Below, piece by piece: positions 136-12,016 of a stretch of 12,016 bases of DNA (the stretch's first letter is position 1; each line of letters opens with the position of its first letter). The stretch covers positions 1-12,016 of the forward strand of contig DAHVNA010000044.1 of NCBI GenBank assembly GCA_027319565.1, written 5' to 3'. The translations under genes and the position numbers were made by a program. The notes under the pieces are model-generated. The model had not been told where the DNA came from, did no database searches, and saw only the letters and a program-made list of their open reading frames with translations. The stretch comes from Elusimicrobiota bacterium. Its GTDB lineage: Bacteria; Elusimicrobiota; Elusimicrobia; UBA1565; UBA9628.

Positions 136-153
136 ATACGCATAAGCATATAT
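134..153. promoter_or_regulatory. Candidate ArsR operator 1 (ATATACG-N6-CATATAT)
   Basis: Imperfect dyad spanning the -10 end to the arsR ATG; the same arms recur at 516-535. Confidence 0.7.
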
Positions 154-499
154 GAAAGCTCCCGCTGACCGGATGTTTAGGGCGTTCGCGGATGAAACGC
201 GGCTGAGGATTCTTAACCTCCTGGCGCGCCGCCGGGAGCTTTGCGTTTGCGATATCCAGAAAATTCTGGGCGTTTCTCAGCCCAAGGTCTCCAGGCACCT
301 CGCATATTTGCGAAGCGCCGGCCTCGTAAACGTTCGCAAAGAGAGATTGTGGAAGCATTACTCTCTGACAAAGGCCGAGAGCGGCTTTCATCGCGGATTA
401 ATTGGATGCCTGCGGGGATGCTTTTCCGAGGTCAAAACTCTGCGACAAGACTTAAAGACGCTCAAAAAAATTCAGTCTCGAAAGGCGACGTGTGACTGA
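152..499 (+). CDS. arsR: ArsR/SmtB-family As(III)-responsive repressor
   Basis: FRAFADETRLRIL, the alpha3 metal-binding motif ELCVCDI, HTH SQPKVSRHLAYLRSAGLV; adjacent to arsC-acr3. Confidence 0.95.
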   Translation: MKAPADRMFRAFADETRLRILNLLARRRELCVCDIQKILGVSQPKVSRHLAYLRSAGLVNVRKERLWKHYSLTKAESGFHRGLIGCLRGCFSEVKTLRQDLKTLKKIQSRKATCD

Positions 500-515
500 T
501 TTTTTTACGCTTTAT

Positions 516-535
516 ATATACGAGAATCCATATAT
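516..535. promoter_or_regulatory. Candidate ArsR operator 2 (ATATACG-N6-CATATAT)
   Basis: Both 7-bp arms are identical to those at 134-153. It overlaps a TATAAT at 533-538 and abuts the GGAG RBS (539-542). Confidence 0.7.
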
Positions 536-547
536 AATGGAGAGAAA

Positions 548-1993
548 ATGAAAAAGGCGTTGTTTGTGTGCGTTGAAAACTCCTGCCGCAGCCAGATGGC
601 GGAAGGATTTGCCCGCAAACTCGGTCAAGGCGTCCTGGAGGTCTTTAGCGCCGGCTCAAGACCGTCCGGACAAGTCAATCTCCGGGCCATCGCCTTTATG
701 AAGGAAAAGGAAATTGATATCGGCGTCCAGGCATCAAAAGGCTTAGGGGATCTTCCCAGGGCCGAGTGGGATTACATCGTGACGATGGGTTGCGGAGACG
801 CCTGCCCCTCTCTTCCGGCCAAAAACCGGCTCGATTGGAACCTGCCCGACCCGAAGAATCTTTCGGATGACGATTTTCGCCATATAAGAGATGAGATCGA
901 ACTTCGCGTCAAGAATTTAATTGACACGGCGAACAATCCGAACGACAAACCCAAAAAACATCTTTCATTTTTAGACCGCTATCTGACGGCGTGGATATTC
1001 GCCGCGATGGCGCTGGGAATCGCTCTTGGATTTTTCGCGCCGGGCATTCCGGCTTTCATCAACCGCTTTCAATCAGGCACGACCAACATCCCCATCGCCA
1101 TCGGTCTTATCCTGATGATGTATCCGCCCTTGGCCAAGGTGCGCTATGAAAATCTCGGCGGGGTCTTTCGCGATAAAAAAGTTCTGGGCCTGTCTCTTCT
1201 CCAAAATTGGGTTATTGGTCCGGCGCTCATGTTTGCGCTCGCTATTATTTTTCTGCGGCGCTATCCCGAATACATGGTCGGCCTTATCCTGATCGGCCTT
1301 GCGCGCTGTATCGCGATGGTGATCGTTTGGAACGAATTGGCGAGCGGAGACGCGGAATACGCGGCCGGCCTCGTCGCCTTTAACAGCGTCTTTCAAGTTC
1401 TCTTCTACAGCGTCTACGCCTGGCTGTTCATCACGAAAGCGCTTCCGCTCTTGGGATTTTCCGGCGCGGCCATTGATATCGGCATGGGACAAATCGCGCG
1501 CAGCGTTTTTATCTACCTCGGCATTCCCTTTCTCGCTGGGATGCTGACTCGGCTCGCCTTGGTCCGGGCAAAAGGAAAGGACTGGTATCATCGGTTTTTT
1601 ATCCCTAAGATCAGTCCGCTGACGCTGATATCCCTTCTCTTTACCATCGTCGTCATGTTTAGCCTGAAAGGAGAGATGATTGTCAAAATTCCGCTCGACG
1701 TTTTGCGAATCGCCCTGCCGCTTCTGATTTATTTCGTCTTGATGTTTTTAATCAGCTTCTGGCTTGGGAAAAAAGCGGGCGCGGACTATTCCAAGGCGGC
1801 GACTCTCTCATTTACGGCCGCCAGCAATAATTTTGAGCTGGCCATCGCGGTCGCGGTGGCGGTATTTGGACTTAACTCGGGACAAGCGTTCGCCGCGGTC
1901 ATTGGGCCCTTGGTCGAGGTTCCGGTTCTCATCGGGCTTGTGAATGTCTCGCTTTTTTTCCAGAGGCGATATTTTAAAGACAAACGGGGATAA
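548..1993 (+). CDS. arsC-acr3: Fused arsenate reductase (LMW-PTP fold, about aa 1-128) and Acr3 arsenite efflux transporter
   Basis: N-terminal [13 protein letters not shown] (CX5R loop), [13 protein letters not shown]; then [44 protein letters not shown] and many hydrophobic helices. One open frame with no Met in the linker. Confidence 0.95.
1912..1982 (+). repeat. Direct repeat copy 1 (3' end of acr3), 71 bp
   Basis: 68/71 identical to 3482-3552; the first 51 bp are identical. Confidence 0.97.
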
Positions 1994-1995
1994 GG

Positions 1996-2039
1996 AGTTC
2001 GCCTAAAAAGGGCGAATTGGGGACTTTTTTTACTTTTTT
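1996..2039 (+). terminator. Possible intrinsic terminator after acr3
   Basis: Stem AGTTCGCCT/GGGCGAATT (two G-U pairs, AAAAA loop). The T-rich run starts 6 nt after the stem, which is not ideal geometry. Confidence 0.45.
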
Positions 2040-3225
2040 AGCGGCGGCTGATTGCCGGCGGATGAGGAATCGAGCGCAAAAATTCTTGAAAGCCGACGGC
2101 CCTGATTTTATCAGCTAGCGGGAAGGACTGCTTTCCAGGAAATATCAGCAACAGCTCGTCGAGATGAAGATCTTGCATCGCGATTTTCATGGAAGGCGTT
2201 AAGCGCGGGGAATCCGTGTATTTGATCTCATATCCGAGGCGGCGGTTGTTTTTGATCAATAATAGGTCCAGCTCGGCTTGATTGTGCGTCGCCCAAAAAT
2301 AAGCTTCCCCAGGACCCGCCTGGCTGGCCCGAATGATCTCTTCGATGGCCCACCCTTCCCAAGAGGCTCCGAGTTTCGGGTGAGACATCACGTCTTTTTC
2401 AGCGCGGCAGCCTATCAGCGAATGAAAAATTCCGGAGTCCCGAAAATAAATTTTGGGCGCCTTGACCTGGCGCTTTTTTAAATTTTCATGCCAGGGCGGG
2501 AGACTCCGCAGCATGAAAGCTCCGCAGAGGATATCGAGATATCGGCGCATGGAATCATCCGAGAGCCCCAGGGATTGGCCAATCTCGGAGGCGTTGAAAG
2601 TTTGTCCGTGATAATGGGCCAGCATCGTCCAAAAGCGGCGCAAGGACGAGGCAGGGACGCGAAATCCAAGGGCTGGAATGTCCCGTTCTAAAAAAGTGGA
2701 GATATAATCTTTCCGCCATTGGGCCGATTCCTCATCTTTGCGGGCTAAAAACGATTTTGGGTAGCCGCCGCGAAGCCAAAGCCGCCTAAGGGCTTTTTCA
2801 GGAACTTCCTCCGCCGTAAAGGGCGAAAGCTCCACAAAACCGATGCGCCCGGCCAAGGACTCCGAACCCTGGCGAATGAGATCTCGCGAGGCGCTCCCCA
2901 AAATAAGAAAGCGCGCCGGAATCGGGCGGCGATCGGAGAGGACGCGCAGGGTCTCAAAAAGATTCGGACGGCGCTGAATTTCATCTATAATGACGACTCC
3001 GCGCAAATTCTCAAGAGCCAACTTAGGCGTCTCAAGCCGAGCGAGATCGGTCTCGTCTTCGAGGTCGAAAAACGCGGAGTTTCGCGCGAGAGGAGAAAGC
3101 TTTAAAAATTGCCGCGCGAGGGTCGTTTTTCCGCATTGGCGCGGCCCTAAAACCGCGACGACGGGGTAAATCCTCGACAGACGGCTGACTTCCGAAAGCG
3201 CGCGCCTTCTCTCTATGAGTTCCAT
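2038..3225 (-). CDS. AAA_14-type ATPase with DUF4143 and C-terminal PD-(D/E)xK-like motif
   Basis: Walker A GPRQCGKTT, Walker B IIDEIQ, LGSAS, ESLAGR, RGGYP, KRQVKAPKIYFRDSG, GASWEG, and ELDLL...GYEIK. Confidence 0.92.
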   Translation of the reverse strand: MELIERRRALSEVSRLSRIYPVVAVLGPRQCGKTTLARQFLKLSPLARNSAFFDLEDETDLARLETPKLALENLRGVVIIDEIQRRPNLFETLRVLSDRRPIPARFLILGSASRDLIRQGSESLAGRIGFVELSPFTAEEVPEKALRRLWLRGGYPKSFLARKDEESAQWRKDYISTFLERDIPALGFRVPASSLRRFWTMLAHYHGQTFNASEIGQSLGLSDDSMRRYLDILCGAFMLRSLPPWHENLKKRQVKAPKIYFRDSGIFHSLIGCRAEKDVMSHPKLGASWEGWAIEEIIRASQAGPGEAYFWATHNQAELDLLLIKNNRRLGYEIKYTDSPRLTPSMKIAMQDLHLDELLLIFPGKQSFPLADKIRAVGFQEFLRSIPHPPAISRR

Positions 3226-3481: not shown

Positions 3482-3575
3482 GGTCGAGGTTCCGGTTCTC
3501 ATCGGGCTTGTGAATGTCTCGCTTTTTTTCCAAAGACGCTATTTTAAAGACACCGAGAGAGGGAAGTTCAGGTAA
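3482..3575 (+). repeat. Direct repeat copy 2: orphan acr3 3' end (repeat 3482-3552, frame open to TAA 3573-3575)
   Basis: Encodes [23 protein letters not shown] then TERGKFR*, against ...YFKDKRG* in the intact gene. Confidence 0.95.
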
Positions 3576-3591: not shown

Positions 3592-3621
3592 TGGACAGGG
3601 CTCTAGAGAAACTAGTATATT
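3592..3621 (+). promoter_or_regulatory. Candidate promoter of the polyamine operon (leaderless geometry)
   Basis: TGGACA (3592-3597), 18-bp spacer, TATATT (3616-3621), 6 nt before the GTG at 3628. Confidence 0.5.
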
Positions 3622-3627
3622 GGCGAC

Positions 3628-4959
3628 GTGGGGAGCCGCTTAAAAGCCCAAATTGGGGCACATGGAAACACCGCTTTAAAACAAAGGGCAAAATTTGTCT
3701 CTAGCGGCGTTGCCGCCTACAGCTCCATCGTCGTTGACCACGCCCAAAACGCGACCCTCTGGGATAGCGAAGGAAAAAAGTATATCGATTTCGCCGGAGG
3801 AATCGGGGCGCTCAACGTTGGGCACTGCCATCCCAAGGTCGTCTCCGCGCTAAAGCGGCAAGCCGCCAAATTAACTCACACTTCTTTTCACGTCGCCAGT
3901 TATTCAGATTATGCGGCGGTCTGCGAAAAACTCTGCCGGACAATTCCCTCGCCTCTTCCCCAAAAAGCCGCGCTTTTTAACAGCGGAGCGGAAGCCGTTG
4001 AAAACGCCGTCAAGCTCGCTCGTTTTTTTACCCGAAGAAGCGCCGTCATTTCTTTCGGTTTCGCTTTCCACGGGCGCACGCTTTTGTGTTTGACCCTCAA
4101 CGGGCGAGAAAAAGTTTTAAAATCCGGCTTTGGCCCCTTCGCCCCGGAAATTTACCGCGCGCCTTTCCCCTATTCGTATCGCCCCCCCGCAGGCATAAAT
4201 CCAAAGGATTTGACCGAGTATTGCCTGGAAGAGTTAAAACGCTTGTGGCAATCAGAAATACCCGCAAATCAAACCGCCGCTTTAATTGTCGAGCCGGTTC
4301 AGGGCGAAGGCGGCTTTATCGTTCCCACGCCCAAATTTCTCAAGGGCTTAAGAGAACTTTGCGACGCCCACGGAATTGTTTTAATCATCGACGAGGTTCA
4401 AAGCGGGTTTGGGCGCACTGGAAAATTCTGGGCCTTTGAGCATGAGGAAGTCTTGCCGGATTTACTGGTCGTTGGAAAATCCCTCGCCGCCGGAATGCCT
4501 CTTTCTGCGGTCGTTGGCCGCTCCGAAATCATGGACGCTCCCCCCGCCGGAGCCATTGGCGGCACCTATGGCGGAAATCCTCTTGCCTGCGCTGCGGCGC
4601 TAGCGGTCTTTGAAATTTTTGAAAAAGAAAATATCCTCAACAAAGCGGGATCGGTCGCAAAAACCGTTCAGGCTCGATTTAACTCCTTTCAGAAAAAATT
4701 TTCCATTATCGGAGAATCTCGGGGCCTTGGCGCCATGCGCGCATTGGAACTGGTCTTGGACAAAAAAACCAAGGCTCCCTTGCCGGTCAATCAAGTTAAA
4801 CAAATTATCGCCGACTGCGAGAAAAAGGGCCTACTCCTCATCAAGGCCGGAATTTTCGACAATGTTTTGCGAACGCTAATGCCGCTGACCATTGAAGACG
4901 CAGACTTAAACGAAGGGCTCGACATTCTGGAAGAGACTTTAGAGGATTTCTGCTTATGA
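3628..4959 (+). CDS. gabT: Class III PLP aminotransferase, 4-aminobutyrate/5-aminovalerate transaminase-like
   Basis: [66 protein letters not shown] (PLP Lys), GGTYGGNP. The GTG start is uncertain. Confidence 0.85.
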   Translation: MGSRLKAQIGAHGNTALKQRAKFVSSGVAAYSSIVVDHAQNATLWDSEGKKYIDFAGGIGALNVGHCHPKVVSALKRQAAKLTHTSFHVASYSDYAAVCEKLCRTIPSPLPQKAALFNSGAEAVENAVKLARFFTRRSAVISFGFAFHGRTLLCLTLNGREKVLKSGFGPFAPEIYRAPFPYSYRPPAGINPKDLTEYCLEELKRLWQSEIPANQTAALIVEPVQGEGGFIVPTPKFLKGLRELCDAHGIVLIIDEVQSGFGRTGKFWAFEHEEVLPDLLVVGKSLAAGMPLSAVVGRSEIMDAPPAGAIGGTYGGNPLACAAALAVFEIFEKENILNKAGSVAKTVQARFNSFQKKFSIIGESRGLGAMRALELVLDKKTKAPLPVNQVKQIIADCEKKGLLLIKAGIFDNVLRTLMPLTIEDADLNEGLDILEETLEDFCL

Positions 4960-6131
4960 AAATCGCGGTCTTAGGCGGCTTTGGAGCGATGGCGGAAGGC
5001 GCGCTTTATTATTTGGCTCAAAACCCCAAGGTTAAATCCATTTTAGCCGCCGATATCGATCTAACGAGAGCGAATTCTCTCTTAAAATCCATCCCGCAAT
5101 CAAAAAAAATCAAGCCCGTTAAGCTTGACATCTCAAATTTAAACGCCGCTTCTCAGGCGCTGAAAGGTTCCGACTGCCTTCTCAACTGTTCCTGGTATGA
5201 ATTTAATCTAAGCGCCATGGATTTAAGCCTGGCTTTAAACGCCCACTATATCGATCTAGGCGGGCTTTATCATATGACGCTCAAACAACTGAAAAAAAAT
5301 GAAGAATTTAAACGCGCCAAACGCTTGGCCGTTTTAGGAATGGGCTCGGCCCCGGGGCTTTCCAATTTGATGGCATCTCACATCGCCAAGGATTTTGATT
5401 CCATCGACACTCTCGGAATTTATGACGCCAGCTTCGACCCGGCTTTAGATAAAAATAAACTCATTGTCCCTTTCTCAATCAAGACGCTTTTGGACGAACA
5501 TGGCCAAAAAGCGCCGATTCTTTTAAATGGAAAGCCGGTCAGCGTTTCCCCTCATTCTCTCGCGGAAGAAATTGATTTTAAAAAGCCCCTGGGCCGAATG
5601 AAAGTGGGAACGGTTATACATTCCGAAACCGCGACCTTGCCCCATTTTCTCAAATCCAAGAAAATCAAAAATTTGTTTTTTAAGATCGGATATCCCCCCC
5701 CTCTCAAAACCCAGTTGGAGATATTGGAAGCCGCCGGATTTTCAAGCGACCGGCCGATTTATCTTAACGGACAAGCGATTTCTCCCAAGTCCTTTTTAGC
5801 CGCGATGGCCCAGCAAAACGCTCGAAATCTATCGCCCACAAACGGGCGCGATTTTGAAATTTTAAGGGTGAAAGCCTCGGGAATCTCAAAAGGGAAATAT
5901 CTGGAAAAAATTCTCGACTGCGAGATGAGCGGAAACGGCAAAATTTCCGCCGGGACACTGGGAGTGGGAGTTCCCGCCGCCATCGCGGCTTTGATGATGA
6001 TTGAGGGAAAAACTTTGATCTCAAGCGGAGCGGCGGCGCCGGAAGAGGCTTTAAATCCTATCTCTGTTATTAAGGAACTTGAGCGTCTTCAAACTTTTAA
6101 TTTCGTCGAAACCGTGACAAAACCCATTTAA
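4956..6131 (+). CDS. Saccharopine dehydrogenase-family NAD(P)-dependent oxidoreductase; substrate unknown
   Basis: N-terminal Rossmann KIAVLGGFGAMA and AADID, HYIDLGG, GMGSAPGLSN, HSETATLP, G...PE. ATGA overlap with the gabT stop. Confidence 0.88.
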   Translation: MKIAVLGGFGAMAEGALYYLAQNPKVKSILAADIDLTRANSLLKSIPQSKKIKPVKLDISNLNAASQALKGSDCLLNCSWYEFNLSAMDLSLALNAHYIDLGGLYHMTLKQLKKNEEFKRAKRLAVLGMGSAPGLSNLMASHIAKDFDSIDTLGIYDASFDPALDKNKLIVPFSIKTLLDEHGQKAPILLNGKPVSVSPHSLAEEIDFKKPLGRMKVGTVIHSETATLPHFLKSKKIKNLFFKIGYPPPLKTQLEILEAAGFSSDRPIYLNGQAISPKSFLAAMAQQNARNLSPTNGRDFEILRVKASGISKGKYLEKILDCEMSGNGKISAGTLGVGVPAAIAALMMIEGKTLISSGAAAPEEALNPISVIKELERLQTFNFVETVTKPI

Positions 6132-6141
6132 GGAACCAGCT

Positions 6142-7548
6142 ATGAAAAAAACCGCGCAAGAGATACTCAAGGAAACGCAAAAAACTCTCGATCTTGTGGC
6201 CAAACCCGAGCTAAACGAGGAAGAAAAAAACTGGGTCACCGATGCCACCGCCAATTACTACTCCAGCCACGTCAACCCCGGCATTCTTGAATACCGGAAA
6301 TCAGTCTCGACGGAATATATCTCGGTTGAATGGGCCGACAGCGCCAACGGTTTTACCGATATTAAAGGAAGGCACTATTTGGACCTTCTCGGGGGATATG
6401 GAATTTTCAACGTCGGACATCGCCACCCTAAAGTCGTGGAAGCGGTCTCAAATCAGCTCAAAAGGCAAGCCCTTCACTCGCAAGAGCTTCTTGAGCCTTT
6501 TCGCGCGATTTTAGCGAAACTCATCCATGATATTACGCCCGGCGATCTTCAGTTTAGCTTCTTTGGAAATTCCGGCGCGGAAGCGGTTGAAGGAGCGATG
6601 AAACTCGCCATGCTTCACACCGGCCGCAAATCCTTTGTCGCCGCGACCTCGGCTTTTCACGGAAAAACATTGGGGGCTTTATCGGCGACGGCCAAAGCGA
6701 AATTTCGCCAGCCTTTCTTGCCTATATTGCCGGACTGCTACCATGTTCCCTATGGCGACGCCGATTATATCGAGTCCATCGTCCGCTCGGCCGACGAAGT
6801 CGGAAACGACATCGCGGGCGTCATTTTAGAGCCAATCCAAGGCGAAGGCGGAATCAATGTTCCTCCGGATGATTATTTCCCAAGGGTTCGGGAAATTTGC
6901 GACAGATACGGGGCGCTTCTAATCGCCGACGAAGTCCAGACCGGAATGGGCCGCACCGGGAAAATGTTTTGCGTGGACCACTGGGATGTCGTGCCCGACA
7001 TCATGTGCCTGGGAAAAGCGATGGGCGGAGGAGTCATGCCCATCGGCGCTTTTGTCTCCAACAAAACGATTTGGGAACAACTTTTTCCCGAGCCCTGGCT
7101 TCATTCAACCACTTTCGGCGGCAATCCCCTGGCCTGCGTCGCCGCCATCGCCAATATTCACGTTTTACTGGAAGAAAAGCTTCCCGAGCGCGCGGAAAAA
7201 ATGGGAAATGAGATAATGGCGAAACTCAAAGCCTTGCGCCGAAGGTTTCCGAAACTCTGCGCGGACGTTCGCGGCAAGGGGCTCATGATCGGCCTTGAGT
7301 TTCCCTCGGACGCCTTGGGTTATGAAATCGCCAAGGGTCTTTTCGATCACGGGGTTTTGGTCGCGGGAACTCTTTTTTCGGCCAAAACCATCCGCATCGA
7401 GCCGCCGCTGACCATCACCCAGCAGGAAGTAAATTCCGCTTTAGATACCATCGAGAAAGTGTTTAAAGAGGTCAATGCCCGCCATTTTGAGTCAAAAAAG
7501 CCGGCGGGAATCAAAAAACATGAAAAAGAGCCAAACACCCCCAGCTAA
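6142..7548 (+). CDS. patA: Putrescine aminotransferase (diamine:2-oxoacid transaminase)
   Basis: PatA/YgjG-type motifs [73 protein letters not shown] upstream. Confidence 0.92.
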
Positions 7549-8968
7549 TCGCCGCGCCATTATTTCACCCTCAAACGAAAAAACAATCGCTCATGTTCAA
7601 GATGCGGGCCAAGAAGAGGTCCATCTCGCCGTTTCCTCCGCCAAAAAGGCCTTCCCCCTTTGGGCCTTAAAATCGCCGGCTGAACGCGCAAGCCTTCTTC
7701 TAAACTGGGCCAACCTCATCGAAAAAAACTTACCCCGCCTCGCGCTTTTAGAATCTCAAAACACCGGCAAACCCCTGAAATTATCCCAAGACGGAGACCT
7801 GCCCTTTGCCGTCGATAATCTGCGCTTTTTCGCTTCCGCCGCGCGCGTTTTGGAGGCGCCGGCTTCATCTGAGTATTCGACCGGATATCTCTCTTTTTTA
7901 AAGAGGGATCCCATCGGCCCCGTAGCGTTGATTACGCCGTGGAATTATCCGCTGATGATGGCGGTTTGGAAAATGGCTCCGGCTTTAGCCGCGGGAAATT
8001 CCTGCGTCATCAAACCCTCGGAATTGACCCCCTTGACCACGCTTGAAATCGCGAAACTGGCCCTCAAAGCGGGTTTCCCAGAAGGCGTCATCAATGTCGT
8101 TTTAGGCGGAGAAGAAACCGGAAAACTCCTGACCTCCCACCCTGAAATTAAAATGATTTCTTTTACCGGAGACACCGCAACGGGGCGAAAAATCATGTCC
8201 CAGGCCTCGACCACGGTTAAACGCCTTCACTTGGAGCTGGGCGGAAAAGCCCCCTTCATCGTCTTTGAAGACGCTTCTCTTTCCGCCGCCGTCTTAGGGG
8301 CCGTCGTCGGCTCTTTTGTCAACGCCGGACAAGATTGCACGGCGGCGACCCGTCTTTACATCCACAAAAAAGTTTTTGACCGCTTTACCGCTGATTTTCT
8401 CAAGGAGACTAAAAAAATAAAACTCGGGCTTTTTGACGATCCCGAAACCGACATGGGCCCGCTGATTTCCGAAGATCAGCGCGCGCGCGTTGAGGGTTTT
8501 TTGAGCAGAGCCGAGAGTATCGAGATTCTCTTCGGCGGGCATCGCCCCAAAAATATAAAGAAGGGATTTTTCTTTGAGCCGACCGTCGTTGTCAAAGCCG
8601 GACAAAATTCGGAACTGGTCCAAAAAGAAATATTTGGCCCTGTCGTTTGTCTTTTGCCGTTTAAAGACGAAGCCGAGGCGGTTCAACTCGCCAACGACGT
8701 TCCCTACGGTCTTGCGGCTTCGGTTTGGACCAAGGACGTCCACAAGGCTTTGAGAGTCTCTTCCGCGCTTAGATTCGGCACGGTTTGGATCAATGACCAT
8801 CTGCCGCTGACTTCGGAAACCCCACACGGCGGCTTTAATCAATCGGGCTTTGGAAAGGATTTGTCTCGCCACGCGCTTGAAGAATACACCGCGCTCAAAC
8901 ACGTCATGGCGGATCTCTCCGGAGACGCGCGCAAACCCTGGCATTACACCGCCTTCGGCAAAAAATAA
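7520..8968 (+). CDS. patD: Gamma-aminobutyraldehyde dehydrogenase-like ALDH
   Basis: PWNYPLMMAVWK, SFTGDTATG, ELGGKAP (catalytic Glu), NAGQDCTAATR (catalytic Cys), PHGG..QSGFGKDLS, KHVM. Start placed at ATG 7520 for the shorter overlap; 7475 is possible. Confidence 0.85.
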   Translation: MKKSQTPPANRRAIISPSNEKTIAHVQDAGQEEVHLAVSSAKKAFPLWALKSPAERASLLLNWANLIEKNLPRLALLESQNTGKPLKLSQDGDLPFAVDNLRFFASAARVLEAPASSEYSTGYLSFLKRDPIGPVALITPWNYPLMMAVWKMAPALAAGNSCVIKPSELTPLTTLEIAKLALKAGFPEGVINVVLGGEETGKLLTSHPEIKMISFTGDTATGRKIMSQASTTVKRLHLELGGKAPFIVFEDASLSAAVLGAVVGSFVNAGQDCTAATRLYIHKKVFDRFTADFLKETKKIKLGLFDDPETDMGPLISEDQRARVEGFLSRAESIEILFGGHRPKNIKKGFFFEPTVVVKAGQNSELVQKEIFGPVVCLLPFKDEAEAVQLANDVPYGLAASVWTKDVHKALRVSSALRFGTVWINDHLPLTSETPHGGFNQSGFGKDLSRHALEEYTALKHVMADLSGDARKPWHYTAFGKK

Positions 8969-8994: not shown

Positions 8995-9023
8995 TTGACA
9001 AAAAGCGATATCGGGGCTATGTT
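8995..9023 (+). promoter_or_regulatory. sigma70-type promoter, leaderless geometry
   Basis: TTGACA (8995-9000), 17-bp spacer, TATGTT (9018-9023), 6 nt before ATG 9030. Confidence 0.65.
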
Positions 9024-9029
9024 AAGGTT

Positions 9030-9470
9030 ATGTTAGAAATATTAGAGCACCTCATCAGCCAGGAAGCGCAGCATCCGCATCAGTTTAGAGCGGCCCTTTA
9101 CCGGGAACTGCTTTCCTCCGAGGTCTATCTTTTGACCCTGGGCGAACCCATCAAAGATGGTCTTTCCACATTCCGAAAATCAAATGATTTCCTTTTGTGG
9201 GCAGAGCAGAAAGCTCCGGGAGAATTCAGGGTTCCGGTTTTCCCCTCATCCGATTCGGTGGCCAGTTTTATTTCTTCTCATCACCTAACCCCTCCGGAGG
9301 GAAAGGAATTTCTCTGGATGAGCCAGAACCCGCAAAAAGCCTTGGCGCCCTTGCTTGAGTTAAACGGTTTTTTAGGCCTTAATCTTTATCTGGCGGAAAA
9401 CGAATCCGTCGCCGTTTCCCAAGAAGAGACAAAGCTTTTGGCGCAGGGAATTATTCCTCACGGCGATTAG
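9030..9470 (+). CDS. Hypothetical protein, SseB N-terminal-domain-like (146 aa)
   Basis: LEHLI...FRAALYRELLSSEVYLL...VPVFPS...E.KLLAQG resembles SseB-family pattern by eye. Start moved from the track's 8850, which overlaps patD by 119 bp. Confidence 0.6.
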   Translation: MLEILEHLISQEAQHPHQFRAALYRELLSSEVYLLTLGEPIKDGLSTFRKSNDFLLWAEQKAPGEFRVPVFPSSDSVASFISSHHLTPPEGKEFLWMSQNPQKALAPLLELNGFLGLNLYLAENESVAVSQEETKLLAQGIIPHGD

Positions 9471-9481
9471 CCTCCTTAACT

Positions 9482-11488
9482 TTATTTAGACGGAGGAGCC
9501 GGCTGGGACGCGGGGCTTACTGGAGGCGACTGCGCTTGATTTTTTTGCGGAATGGGAATCGTAAAGAAAAAGCGCGAGCCCTTTCCTAGCTCCGATTCAA
9601 CCCCCATTTCGCCGCCGTGAAGTTGAACGATTTCCCGCGCGATCTTAAGCCCCAAACCGAATCCCGCCTTTCTCATCGCCTGGGCCTGCTGGGATTGGAA
9701 GAACCGCTCAAAGACTCTCGGCAAATCTTCCTTTGAAATTCCGATACCGGAGTCGCGAACGCCGATGGTCAACATTTGATGTCCCAGATCGACTTTAACC
9801 TGAACCAGCCCGCCTTCTTTCGTGTATTGCACGGCATTAGTGCAAAGATTCTGGATGACCTGTCCAATCCGATGGGGATCCCCTCTCAACATCGGTAACT
9901 GAGGCGGAACTTGAACCTCAAAACGAATTTTTCTCTGCTGAGCGACAATCTGAATGCGGGAGCTGACGTCTTTGATGACTTCGGAGAGATTCAGATCGCC
10001 CAAATTGACCCGCAATTTTCCGGATTCAATGGCGGCCAAATCAACCAAATCTGAAATCAAAAGATTCAAGGTTTGCGCCGCGGAATTAATGTGAGAGGAA
10101 TATTCAAGCTCTTTGGGAGAATTTTTTAAGCCCATTCCCAATATTTCCGAATAGCCCAAAATCGCGGTTAAAGGGTTTTTAACGTCATGGGCGACCATCG
10201 CGAAAAACTTTTTCTGAAACCCGTTGATTTGTTCAAGCTGCCTGTTGGATTCCTGAACTTCCTTTAAAAGGCGCGCGTTTTCCAAAATCAGGAATCTGCG
10301 TTCAAGAGCCCGGCGAACGGAGAAAATAAGGCGGGAAGAATCCACCGGTTTGAGCAAGGCGTCATCCAAGCCCAACTCGACAGATTGGCTGACCCCTTGA
10401 AGCGCAGCGGTCAAAGGGTAGCGGTCAACCATGAAAATGATTCTTAAATCCGGATCATGCTCTCTTAATTTTTGAGCGATTTCCAGCCCCGTATGCCGGG
10501 TGTAGGCCAAGGCGGCGCCGACAACGGCCAGGTGAAAACTTCCTTTGATCTGGGCCCGTCGCAAGGCGTCCTCCGCGTCCATTGTGGTAAAAACATCGTA
10601 GCCAGCCACGCGCAACGCTTGAGACAACGCGTCCAAGGTTGGCTTGTAATTATCCAGGAATAATATTTTTTCCTTGCCTCTTTGAGTCGGTTCAGCCATC
10701 TGAGGGGCTTCGGTTAAAAGCTTTGGAATCAAAGCCGACTCCTCGCGTAAAAGTTCGACAGGCGCGTTTTCTCTTAAGCGATTGGCCATCCAACGCACGC
10801 GATCAATGCTTGAAATGTAATAGCAAACGCAGTTATTGACGGCTTTTCTTAAAGCCGTGTCAAAACCGGCGACATCCGCCCAAAGCCCCGGGAAAGGGAC
10901 AATGACCTGGCATTTCCTTCCCGCCCCAAAAGAAGCCGGCTCGGGCTTAGAGACTTGGGAAACCTGCTTCCAAAAGGTTTTCCCGGGATCCGAAACATCG
11001 TTAGGCGGAATGGTTCTTTCTAAGAGAAATTTTTCAAGATTCTGCGCGCTCGGGCGTTCTTCAACGACGATTCCCGATTGTCTAAAGGAGATCGGAAGAG
11101 CATGACTGGTAAAAAAAGCCTCATCGGCCAGAAAAACGACCGGGCGCTCAACCGAACGCAACTGATCGGCAAACCCGTGGGGAGGCGGCCAAGGTAGCGC
11201 CCTGACTGGCACGGACTGAACGGGAGAATAACTCGCCAGAGTTTGAAGAAGAAAAAGCGGAAACCGCCCGCGAACCTTATAGGCGTTAAAAAGGGCTTGT
11301 CTTTCCGGAATAGCAATGCGCTCATAATCTAAAACCAAGGCGGAGATATCAGGCGTTCCCATCCGAATAATGGCGTCCGCCGCGGAATTAAAGGCCGTTA
11401 AAGAATAATCGTAATTTTTAAGATGAGTTTCCAGTTCGCCAACCAACGTCATGTCCTGGGTGACAAGGAAAATAACGCCCTTACTCAC
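9482..11488 (-). CDS. Soluble hybrid histidine kinase (degenerate REC domains, HisKA, HATPase_c)
   Basis: H-box [11 protein letters not shown] (His434), N-box [10 protein letters not shown]1 DSGIGI, F-box FERF, G2 GFGLGL; REC-like KILFLDN...LLKPV; no evident transmembrane helix. GTG start with GGAGG 6 nt upstream. Confidence 0.92.
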
Positions 11489-12016
11489 CGAAAGCCTCCG
11501 GCTCTTAAAGGCTTGAGTTTGGCCGTGAAATGACGCAAGCTCTGAGGTTCCTCGATAATCTCAAGCCCCTTAATGGATTTTTTACGGCCGGCGATAAAAC
11601 CAAAAACCTCGATAATAAAATCAACATGGCTTTGAGTATAGACGCGCCGCGGAAGCGCCAAGCGCACCAGTTCCATGGGAGCGGGCTTAAAATCTCGGCC
11701 TTGCCCGCGCCCAAACATCAAAGAGCCCACCTCAACGGATCGAATTCCCGCAACCCCATAGAGTTCGCAAACCAAGGCTTGAGCCGGAAACTGATGAGGC
11801 GAAATATGCGGCAAAAATCGCTTTGCGTCCACATAGATTGCGTGTCCGCCGGGCGGATTAATAATCGGCACCTTATGTTTTTTCAAACCTTCGGCTAAAT
11901 ACGCCACCGAGCGCAAACGATAAGAAAGATAATTTTCATCCACGATTTCTTTTAGGCCCTGAGCTATAGCCTCTAGATCTCGCCCGGCAAGCCCGCCATA
12001 TGTCGGGAAGAGATCG
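11485..12016 (-). CDS. tnaA: Tryptophanase-like beta-eliminating lyase, 3' part (5' end beyond the window)
   Basis: Frame open to the edge: [67 protein letters not shown] and TQSH favour tryptophanase over tyrosine phenol-lyase, but the active-site Lys region is not visible. Confidence 0.82.

Follow-up and report, generated by a model that had tools for sequence, protein, structure and literature searches.

A likely polyamine-degrading operon of four genes was identified in a 12,016-nucleotide stretch of DNA from an Elusimicrobiota bacterium (contig DAHVNA010000044.1; the whole stretch is hereafter called the window). Its second gene encodes an oxidoreductase of the saccharopine dehydrogenase (SDH) superfamily that belongs to an uncharacterized subfamily. 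In the reading we favor, to which we assign a probability of about 0.45, this enzyme converts homospermidine and NAD+ to putrescine and 4-aminobutanal, with cofactor, direction and substrate all inferred. Some role of the enzyme in polyamine catabolism is very probable.

The four genes (gabT, the SDH-superfamily gene, patA and patD) lie on the plus strand at exactly the coordinates given in a first-pass annotation of the window (Table 1). The spacings given there are also exact: a 4-bp ATGA overlap between gabT and the SDH-family gene, a 10-bp gap before patA, and a 29-bp overlap of patA with patD, which presumes that patD begins at the ATG at 7520 (a second in-frame ATG is at 7475). The names given to the three flanking enzymes hold, as each passes one curated cut-off: GabT scores 520 bits with TIGR00700 (cut-off 507), PatA 654 bits with NF008570 (cut-off 612) and PatD 643 bits with NF010000 (cut-off 615). 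GabT stays below the cut-off of the 2-aminoadipate transaminase model NF049976 (443 vs. 650), and PatA and PatD miss the stricter models TIGR03372 (541 vs. 659) and TIGR03374 (489 vs. 909). The middle gene was correctly placed in the SDH family, matching both PF03435 (61 bits, cut-off 25) and PF16653 (64 bits, cut-off 31). A carboxyspermidine decarboxylase gene (nspC) does not adjoin it, as had been stated, and none was found elsewhere in the genome. GabD is not in the operon, and among the aldehyde dehydrogenases (ALDHs) that the host encodes on contigs C23, C29 and C111, none tested reaches the cut-off for succinate semialdehyde dehydrogenase.

In the proposed pathway, the SDH-family enzyme would cleave homospermidine at the central nitrogen with NAD+ as oxidant, and the two products, putrescine and 4-aminobutanal, match the substrates of PatA and PatD exactly. 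Going by family assignment, PatA would turn putrescine into a second 4-aminobutanal, PatD would oxidize both molecules to 4-aminobutyrate (GABA), and GabT would yield succinate semialdehyde from GABA. The predicted chemistry is a transfer of hydride from the carbon beside the secondary amine to NAD+, after which the imine would be hydrolyzed with the help of a His222-Glu224 relay while Glu181 holds a terminal amino group. Cyclization of 4-aminobutanal to pyrroline, together with its oxidation by PatD, would pull the reaction forward. The oxygen-independent entry route envisaged in the first-pass annotation follows only from this predicted NAD chemistry.

The structure model of the window protein (pLDDT 95.8) matches the three-domain fold of the SDH superfamily. 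Compared with the PDB, carboxyspermidine dehydrogenase (CASDH) ranks highest (Z 47, the two top matches scoring 47.3 and 46.7), followed by L-lysine 6-dehydrogenase (LysDH, Z 40), saccharopine dehydrogenases (29-33) and homospermidine synthase (HSS, 29). By sequence, the best PDB matches are CASDH-type chains (E ~2e-11) and the LysDH 3ABI (2e-5), and a 43-sequence profile of the subfamily scores CASDH 8DEB at 200 bits and 3ABI at 116 bits; HSS was matched neither in the PDB sequence search nor with this profile. The closest homologues are from Elusimicrobiota, and matches in the ESM Atlas carry only automatic SDH names.

The subfamily is marked by the motifs DLGGLY/FH, LxE and HSE. Residues H222, E224, S136 and E181 of the window protein align with His228, Glu230, Ser144 and Glu188 of B. 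fragilis CASDH, which are the proposed relay or substrate-binding residues of that enzyme (PMC10413350). Among 141 full-length representatives (the best 150 less nine shorter ones), H222 is conserved in 136, E224 in 140, E181 in 128 and D33 in 125, and the middle residue of the HSE motif is Ser in 123. HSS carries His296-x-Glu298, and variants at these positions are inactive (PMC4725965); within the HSS set of Asn162, Glu210, Trp229, Glu237, His296 and Glu298, the equivalents of His296, Glu298 and Glu210 were derived by way of the CASDH alignment. The window protein has H222-S-E224, and the His-x-Glu motif is missing in 3ABI and in LysDH-like sequences; PMC10413350 likewise describes the His-Glu-Glu sequence as missing from LysDH and saccharopine reductase. 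At the cofactor site, Ser34-Arg35-Thr36 (...Lys39), which binds the NADP phosphate in CASDH, is replaced by Asp33-Ile-Asp. An acidic residue at that Rossmann-fold position favors NAD. We therefore infer an NAD-type site and use of NAD+, which suits oxidation.

The subfamily is large. A pattern search of a genome collection returned at least 589 relatives among the 601 matches listed, and clustering at 50% identity gave at least 150 clusters from bacteria and archaea, the best 150 representatives all scoring above 330 bits. In a quick tree of 94 rows, the window protein falls in a group of nine Elusimicrobiota rows, itself part of a 48-row core (SH-aLRT 90) that excludes both a CASDH group (SH-aLRT 100) and a LysDH-like group (100). 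Only this core was counted as the subfamily; a broader clade label needed five changes on the tree and included divergent rows. The LysDH-like label is given by 3ABI as the best PDB match for two rows and by tree position for the remaining rows, and the trees contain no HSS and no eukaryotic saccharopine dehydrogenase. Grouping with CASDH, which would have told against the earlier proposal, was rejected when the Elusimicrobiota rows were joined with CASDH in a 39-row subset (approximately unbiased (AU) test, p = 0.006). With NF043000, the window protein scores 41 bits and four CASDH-type references score 404-449, the references also lying below the cut-off of 800. A CASDH role was thus ruled out by residues, cofactor site, the missing nspC and the AU test. 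On these alignments, the tree excludes CASDH membership and is compatible with a joint clade with LysDH-like proteins; in the 94-row tree, which includes no assayed LysDH sequence, the window protein is not nested among the LysDH-like rows. A second uncharacterized lineage was encountered on a Streptomyces plasmid, where a CASDH-related protein (locus L135, 7998-9245) carries Asp at this cofactor site and the fetched locus lacks nspC.

Conservation of the linkage to patA and patD was assessed by tallying genes within 7 kb of each homologue (one locus with a partial gene was not scored). The linkage is kept in two phyla, Elusimicrobiota and Chloroflexota, in which the gene orders differ. All 21 loci of close Elusimicrobiota orthologues have patA, with gabT in 16, a patD-like gene in 16, a potD-like gene in five and nspC in none. 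For Chloroflexota, an even draw of 301 genomes contained 12 homologues above 400 bits, 11 of them newly fetched; patA is directly upstream in 11/11, an ALDH gene is downstream in 10/11 (one contig ends) and a patD-like gene is present in 6/11. All four Chloroflexota PatA proteins tested pass NF008570, as do two of four ALDHs with NF010000. As controls, 22 LysDH-like Elusimicrobiota paralogues were scored, and these have no patA, patD or potD-like neighbor, with any ALDH gene near seven and a gabT-like gene near four. A further 58 loci from other taxa (Acidobacteriota, Melainabacteria, Fraserbacteria, Armatimonadota, archaea and others) are the best matches to the window protein rather than an even sample, and many are kin; gabT is found in 17, any ALDH gene in 34, a potD-like gene in 21 and nspC in none. 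When the locus from genome G338 is left out, 20/57 have a potD-like gene, and 40/57 have an ALDH, class III aminotransferase or potD-like gene. Importer subunits near homologues match PotA/B/C/D/F models best, with only one PotA passing its cut-off. On plasmids of cultured Haladaptatus, Rhizobium and Acidisoma, the homologue lies beside an ABC importer, and in Haladaptatus salinisoli and Rhizobium daejeonense it adjoins annotated spermidine/putrescine ABC binding proteins and ALDHs; the Rhizobium and Acidisoma homologues fall outside the 48-row core.

A variant operon is seen in Acidobacteriota (L082, L084, L085, L100 and related loci), which comprises an outer-membrane beta-barrel receptor, the SDH-family gene, a HemL-like class III aminotransferase, an APC permease, an ALDH, gabT and in many cases another ALDH; a PotABCD-like importer is divergently encoded. 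Here PatA may be replaced by the HemL-like enzyme as an uncharacterized diamine transaminase.

The host assembly is 91.65% complete, a limit that applies to every absence reported for it. It encodes SpeA, a SpeY scoring above the cut-off of NF002699 and, next to it, a ureohydrolase, and thus, as judged from gene content, an agmatine route to homospermidine. SpeE, SpeD, nspC, agmatine deiminase, MmsA, both classes of ornithine decarboxylase (ODC), a PotD-type binding protein and a second PF16653 gene (such as HSS) were not found in this genome; the only further ureohydrolase detected is an arginase. In all 26 genomes of the host's family, nspC was not found. Genomes with arginine decarboxylase (ADC), SpeY and its ureohydrolase contain very little putrescine unless ODC is present, as argued in PMC13625781, so PatA would need another source of putrescine. 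A putrescine-degrading operon in such a host is best explained by an enzyme that frees putrescine from homospermidine, and the predicted gene content of the host thereby points independently to this substrate. The host also has two full-length DAO-family flavoprotein genes, so that an alternative flavin amine oxidase may be present. Across carriers of the enzyme, a DHS/SpeY-family gene occurs in 57/65 (47/54 bacterial carriers, or 47/53 without G338), and speE passes its cut-off in 3/65. Outside Elusimicrobiota, one of 47 carriers has nspC, with another PF16653 gene adjoining it. In Chloroflexota, the DHS-family gene is found in 10/12 carriers versus 40/289 other genomes.

Several observations weigh against homospermidine cleavage. 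The fold is nearer to CASDH than to HSS (Z 47 vs. 29), and the aldehyde partner of CASDH has a three-carbon arm; CASDH Asp140 and Glu229 are replaced by A132 and S223. The Asp140 position holds Ala, Ser or Thr in the subfamily, and the Asp of the GFDPG motif (D139 of carboxyaminopropylagmatine dehydrogenase, CAPADH), which corresponds to Ala132, is Asp in 10/141 representatives. A clade joining the Elusimicrobiota and LysDH-like rows was not rejected (AU p = 0.47, 39-row subset). No patA was found in the 58 loci from other taxa, 17 of which have no tallied marker, and some archaea and Chloroflexota have tandem paralogues and unrelated contexts. The evidence from genome content is weak given assembly completeness, a possible uptake of putrescine by three APC permeases of the host, and the potential of relatives with PotABCD to scavenge any polyamine. 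Co-occurrence with SpeY is confounded by kinship: those Chloroflexota carriers that are in the tree all fall on a single branch, so the DHS contrast rests on kin, and within Elusimicrobiota a DHS-family gene is found in 15/15 non-carriers tested. SpeY occurs in 130/301 Elusimicrobiota genomes, mostly without a window-type enzyme, including 87/88 genomes of one family (f4) in which no SDH-family protein matches the window protein, and it is missing in 2/14 close carriers, one genome (G218) having speE instead. Thus, the earlier suggestion of homospermidine splitting stands in part, carried by the exclusion from CASDH, the linkage in two phyla and the genome content, and is weakened by the possible sisterhood with LysDH and by the fold.

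Two further associations with SpeY were considered and dropped. Enrichment of SpeY with the enzyme inside Elusimicrobiota was rejected, as non-carriers have SpeY too. Physical linkage of speY to the operon proved not to be conserved beyond the closest relatives: in three of these at the level of the same genus (L052, L054 and L055), the start of host contig C31 continues the end of the window, which places speY ~4.3 kb past patD, and this arrangement is not seen in L051 or in other genera. Separately, SpeY (130 genomes) and nspC (129 genomes) hardly ever share a family among the 301 Elusimicrobiota genomes, with SpeY in 87/88 and nspC in 0/88 of family f4 and SpeY in 0/89 and nspC in 79/89 of family f14; genus g4 has both SpeY and speE.

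Other substrates or directions could account for part of this evidence. An NAD+-dependent spermidine dehydrogenase would reverse CASDH chemistry on the decarboxylated triamine, releasing putrescine and 3-aminopropanal or, alternatively, diaminopropane and 4-aminobutanal. The CASDH-like fold and the PotABCD-like importers that often adjoin homologues agree with this, as does D157, which is kept in the Elusimicrobiota branch and aligns with CAPADH D165, an essential Asp that binds the amino group (PMC10599626). However, D157 is Asp in only 25/141 representatives, neither spermidine synthesis nor a PotD-type importer was found in the host assembly, and MmsA passes its cut-off in few carriers (2/14 close Elusimicrobiota and 5/11 Chloroflexota carriers, not the host), making spermidine an unlikely substrate. 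A primary-amine dehydrogenase like LysDH, which would deaminate lysine, cadaverine or putrescine to the aldehyde, we consider quite unlikely. It would fit the DLGG motif and NAD-type Asp shared with LysDH-like rows, the AU result for a joint clade, the ALDH plus gabT-like genes near 4/22 LysDH-like controls, a lysine 6-transaminase gene adjoining one homologue (L117) and the acceptance of cadaverine by PatA (PMC9397018). Such an activity would nevertheless duplicate PatA, the constant neighbor, and LysDH lacks the His-x-Glu motif in the account cited above; in addition, six close carriers (G150, G178, G218, G265, G283 and G300) hold a separate, far more distant paralogue that is LysDH-like where tested.

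It is very unlikely, though compatible with the same pathway, that the steps run in another order, with PatA and PatD first oxidizing one end of homospermidine to N-(4-aminobutyl)-GABA, which the enzyme would then cleave, or that its substrate is the bis-guanidino precursor G44G, yielding agmatine and 4-guanidinobutanal. Most characterized substrates of the superfamily (saccharopine, carboxyspermidine, lysine) bear a carboxylate, and ureohydrolase genes lie near the SDH-family gene in three loci (L092, L115 and L125); against such a modified derivative, the position of CASDH Thr343 is not conserved (G336 in the window protein), and the Haladaptatus and Rhizobium loci have ALDHs and an importer with no aminotransferase annotated in the fetched stretch. 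Finally, the enzyme could work in the synthetic direction and reductively couple 4-aminobutanal from PatA with a di- or triamine, giving homospermidine or a longer polyamine. CASDH and CAPADH, which have the same His-x-Glu relay, act reductively (PMC10413350, PMC10599626), but the NAD-type site, the importers and catabolic ALDHs around homologues, a PatD and GabT that would remove the aldehyde, and the SpeY already present in the host make synthesis highly improbable. The subfamily as a whole is unlikely to be monofunctional and probably acts on several substrates. Tandem SDH-superfamily paralogues occur in L105 (Bathyarchaeia), L048 (genome G295) and L165 (genome G452); L105 has four, of different branches, within 17 kb, together with an ornithine cyclodeaminase-family gene and a potD-like gene.

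The proposed cleavage of homospermidine by the window enzyme can be set beside several known systems. CASDH, carboxynorspermidine dehydrogenase (CANSDH) and CAPADH (8DEB, 8H52, 4INA, 4RL6) are the closest folds (Z 42-47, rmsd 2.0-3.0 Å) and share the His-x-Glu relay, the Ser144 and Glu188 equivalents and imine redox at a C-N bond. In contrast to them, the window enzyme is only 21-23% identical, has Asp33 in place of Ser-Arg-Thr and H-S-E in place of H-E/D-E, has lost Asp140, and is accompanied by catabolic neighbors rather than a decarboxylase partner. LysDH (3ABI, Z 39.8) has the same fold, an NAD-type site and an aldehyde product that cyclizes, and LysDH-like rows share the DLGG motif, but LysDH oxidizes a primary amine without His-x-Glu, and LysDH-like controls were never near patA or patD. 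Bacterial HSS (2PH5, 4PLP, 6Y87) is an NAD-binding member of the superfamily with His296-x-Glu298, and its last step (PMC4725965) is the exact reverse of the first step proposed here. It differs in fold score (Z only 29), identity (14-16%) and length (454-475 vs. 391 residues), and retains NAD as a prosthetic group without net redox. Saccharopine dehydrogenase (Glu-forming) is also distant (Z 29-33), its conserved Asp126 being Ala132 in the window enzyme. The window enzyme would have chemistry like that of CASDH or HSS run towards cleavage and is a member of neither. At the pathway level, three of the four enzymes of the E. coli PatA-PatD-GabT-GabD route are in the operon, whereas GabD is absent from it and an upstream oxidoreductase is added. 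The spermidine dehydrogenase SpdH of P. aeruginosa likewise cleaves a triamine oxidatively at its secondary amine to give 4-aminobutanal, although its polyamine-oxidase, heme-binding fold and its cofactor are unrelated to those of the window enzyme (PMC9397018).

The remainder of the window holds further genes (Table 1). ArsC and Acr3, fused in the window and in L051, are separate open reading frames (ORFs) in L052-L055, and acr3 lies directly before gabT in L052 and L053. A 71-nt direct repeat (96% identical), which copies the 3' end of acr3, flanks an AAA_14/DUF4143 gene, and this segment resembles a 1.6-kb insertion that duplicated its target. Downstream, a 153-aa ORF without a Pfam or NCBIfam match is 89% identical in genome G190, and the N-terminal part of a hybrid sensor kinase matches no assigned domain. 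The contig end truncates the tryptophanase gene, whose start lies on host contig C31 (1-3455), followed by a small gene, speY and the ureohydrolase, and relatives show the two contigs adjacent. Promoter-like sites of the grade found upstream of gabT number 11 in the region versus 4.4 in shuffled sequence, and a terminator scan of the region was at chance level (13 vs. 12.8).

Table 1 Features of the window.
Feature	Position	Strand	Details
arsR, then arsC-acr3 fusion	152..1993		fusion 481 aa
Direct repeat, copy 1	1912..1982		71 nt
AAA_14/DUF4143 gene	2038..3225	-	
Direct repeat, copy 2	3482..3552		71 nt
Sigma-70-like promoter match, weak, just upstream of gabT	3592..3621	+	10/12 consensus positions; consensus match only
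gabT, 4-aminobutyrate--2-oxoglutarate transaminase (class III, pyridoxal phosphate (PLP))	3628..4959	+	443 aa; TIGR00700; PLP motifs present
SDH-superfamily oxidoreductase, uncharacterized subfamily, predicted NAD+-dependent homospermidine dehydrogenase	4956..6131	+	391 aa; PF03435+PF16653
patA, putrescine aminotransferase	6142..7548	+	468 aa; NF008570
patD-like aminobutyraldehyde dehydrogenase	7520..8968	+	482 aa; NF010000; catalytic Glu and Cys motifs present
Promoter-like site of 153-aa ORF	8995..9023		
153-aa ORF	9009..9470		
Hybrid sensor kinase	9482..11488		receiver, HisKA, HATPase
Tryptophanase, partial	11485..12016		cut by contig end

Homospermidine is among the commonest bacterial polyamines. 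No paper on its catabolism was found in the full-text literature searched, which covers few subscription journals, and no characterization of the subfamily was found in its main texts either. The bacterial polyamine catabolic routes given in a 2022 review are glutamylation, transamination, direct oxidation, SpdH and acetylation, none of them NAD-linked cleavage (PMC9397018). We tentatively suggest that the window enzyme could found a family of NAD+-dependent homospermidine dehydrogenases and a bacterial pathway of homospermidine catabolism for which no published report was found. As a single soluble enzyme with a clear assay, it makes the question directly testable. If the proposal is correct, the enzyme would supply the missing first step of homospermidine degradation, and the wider subfamily would comprise NAD-linked secondary-amine cleavers that feed triamines to central metabolism without oxygen, flavin, acetylation or glutamylation. 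An oxidative member would then be added to a superfamily branch known for building polyamines, and a large set of genes now labeled "saccharopine" or "lysine 6-dehydrogenase" would be corrected.

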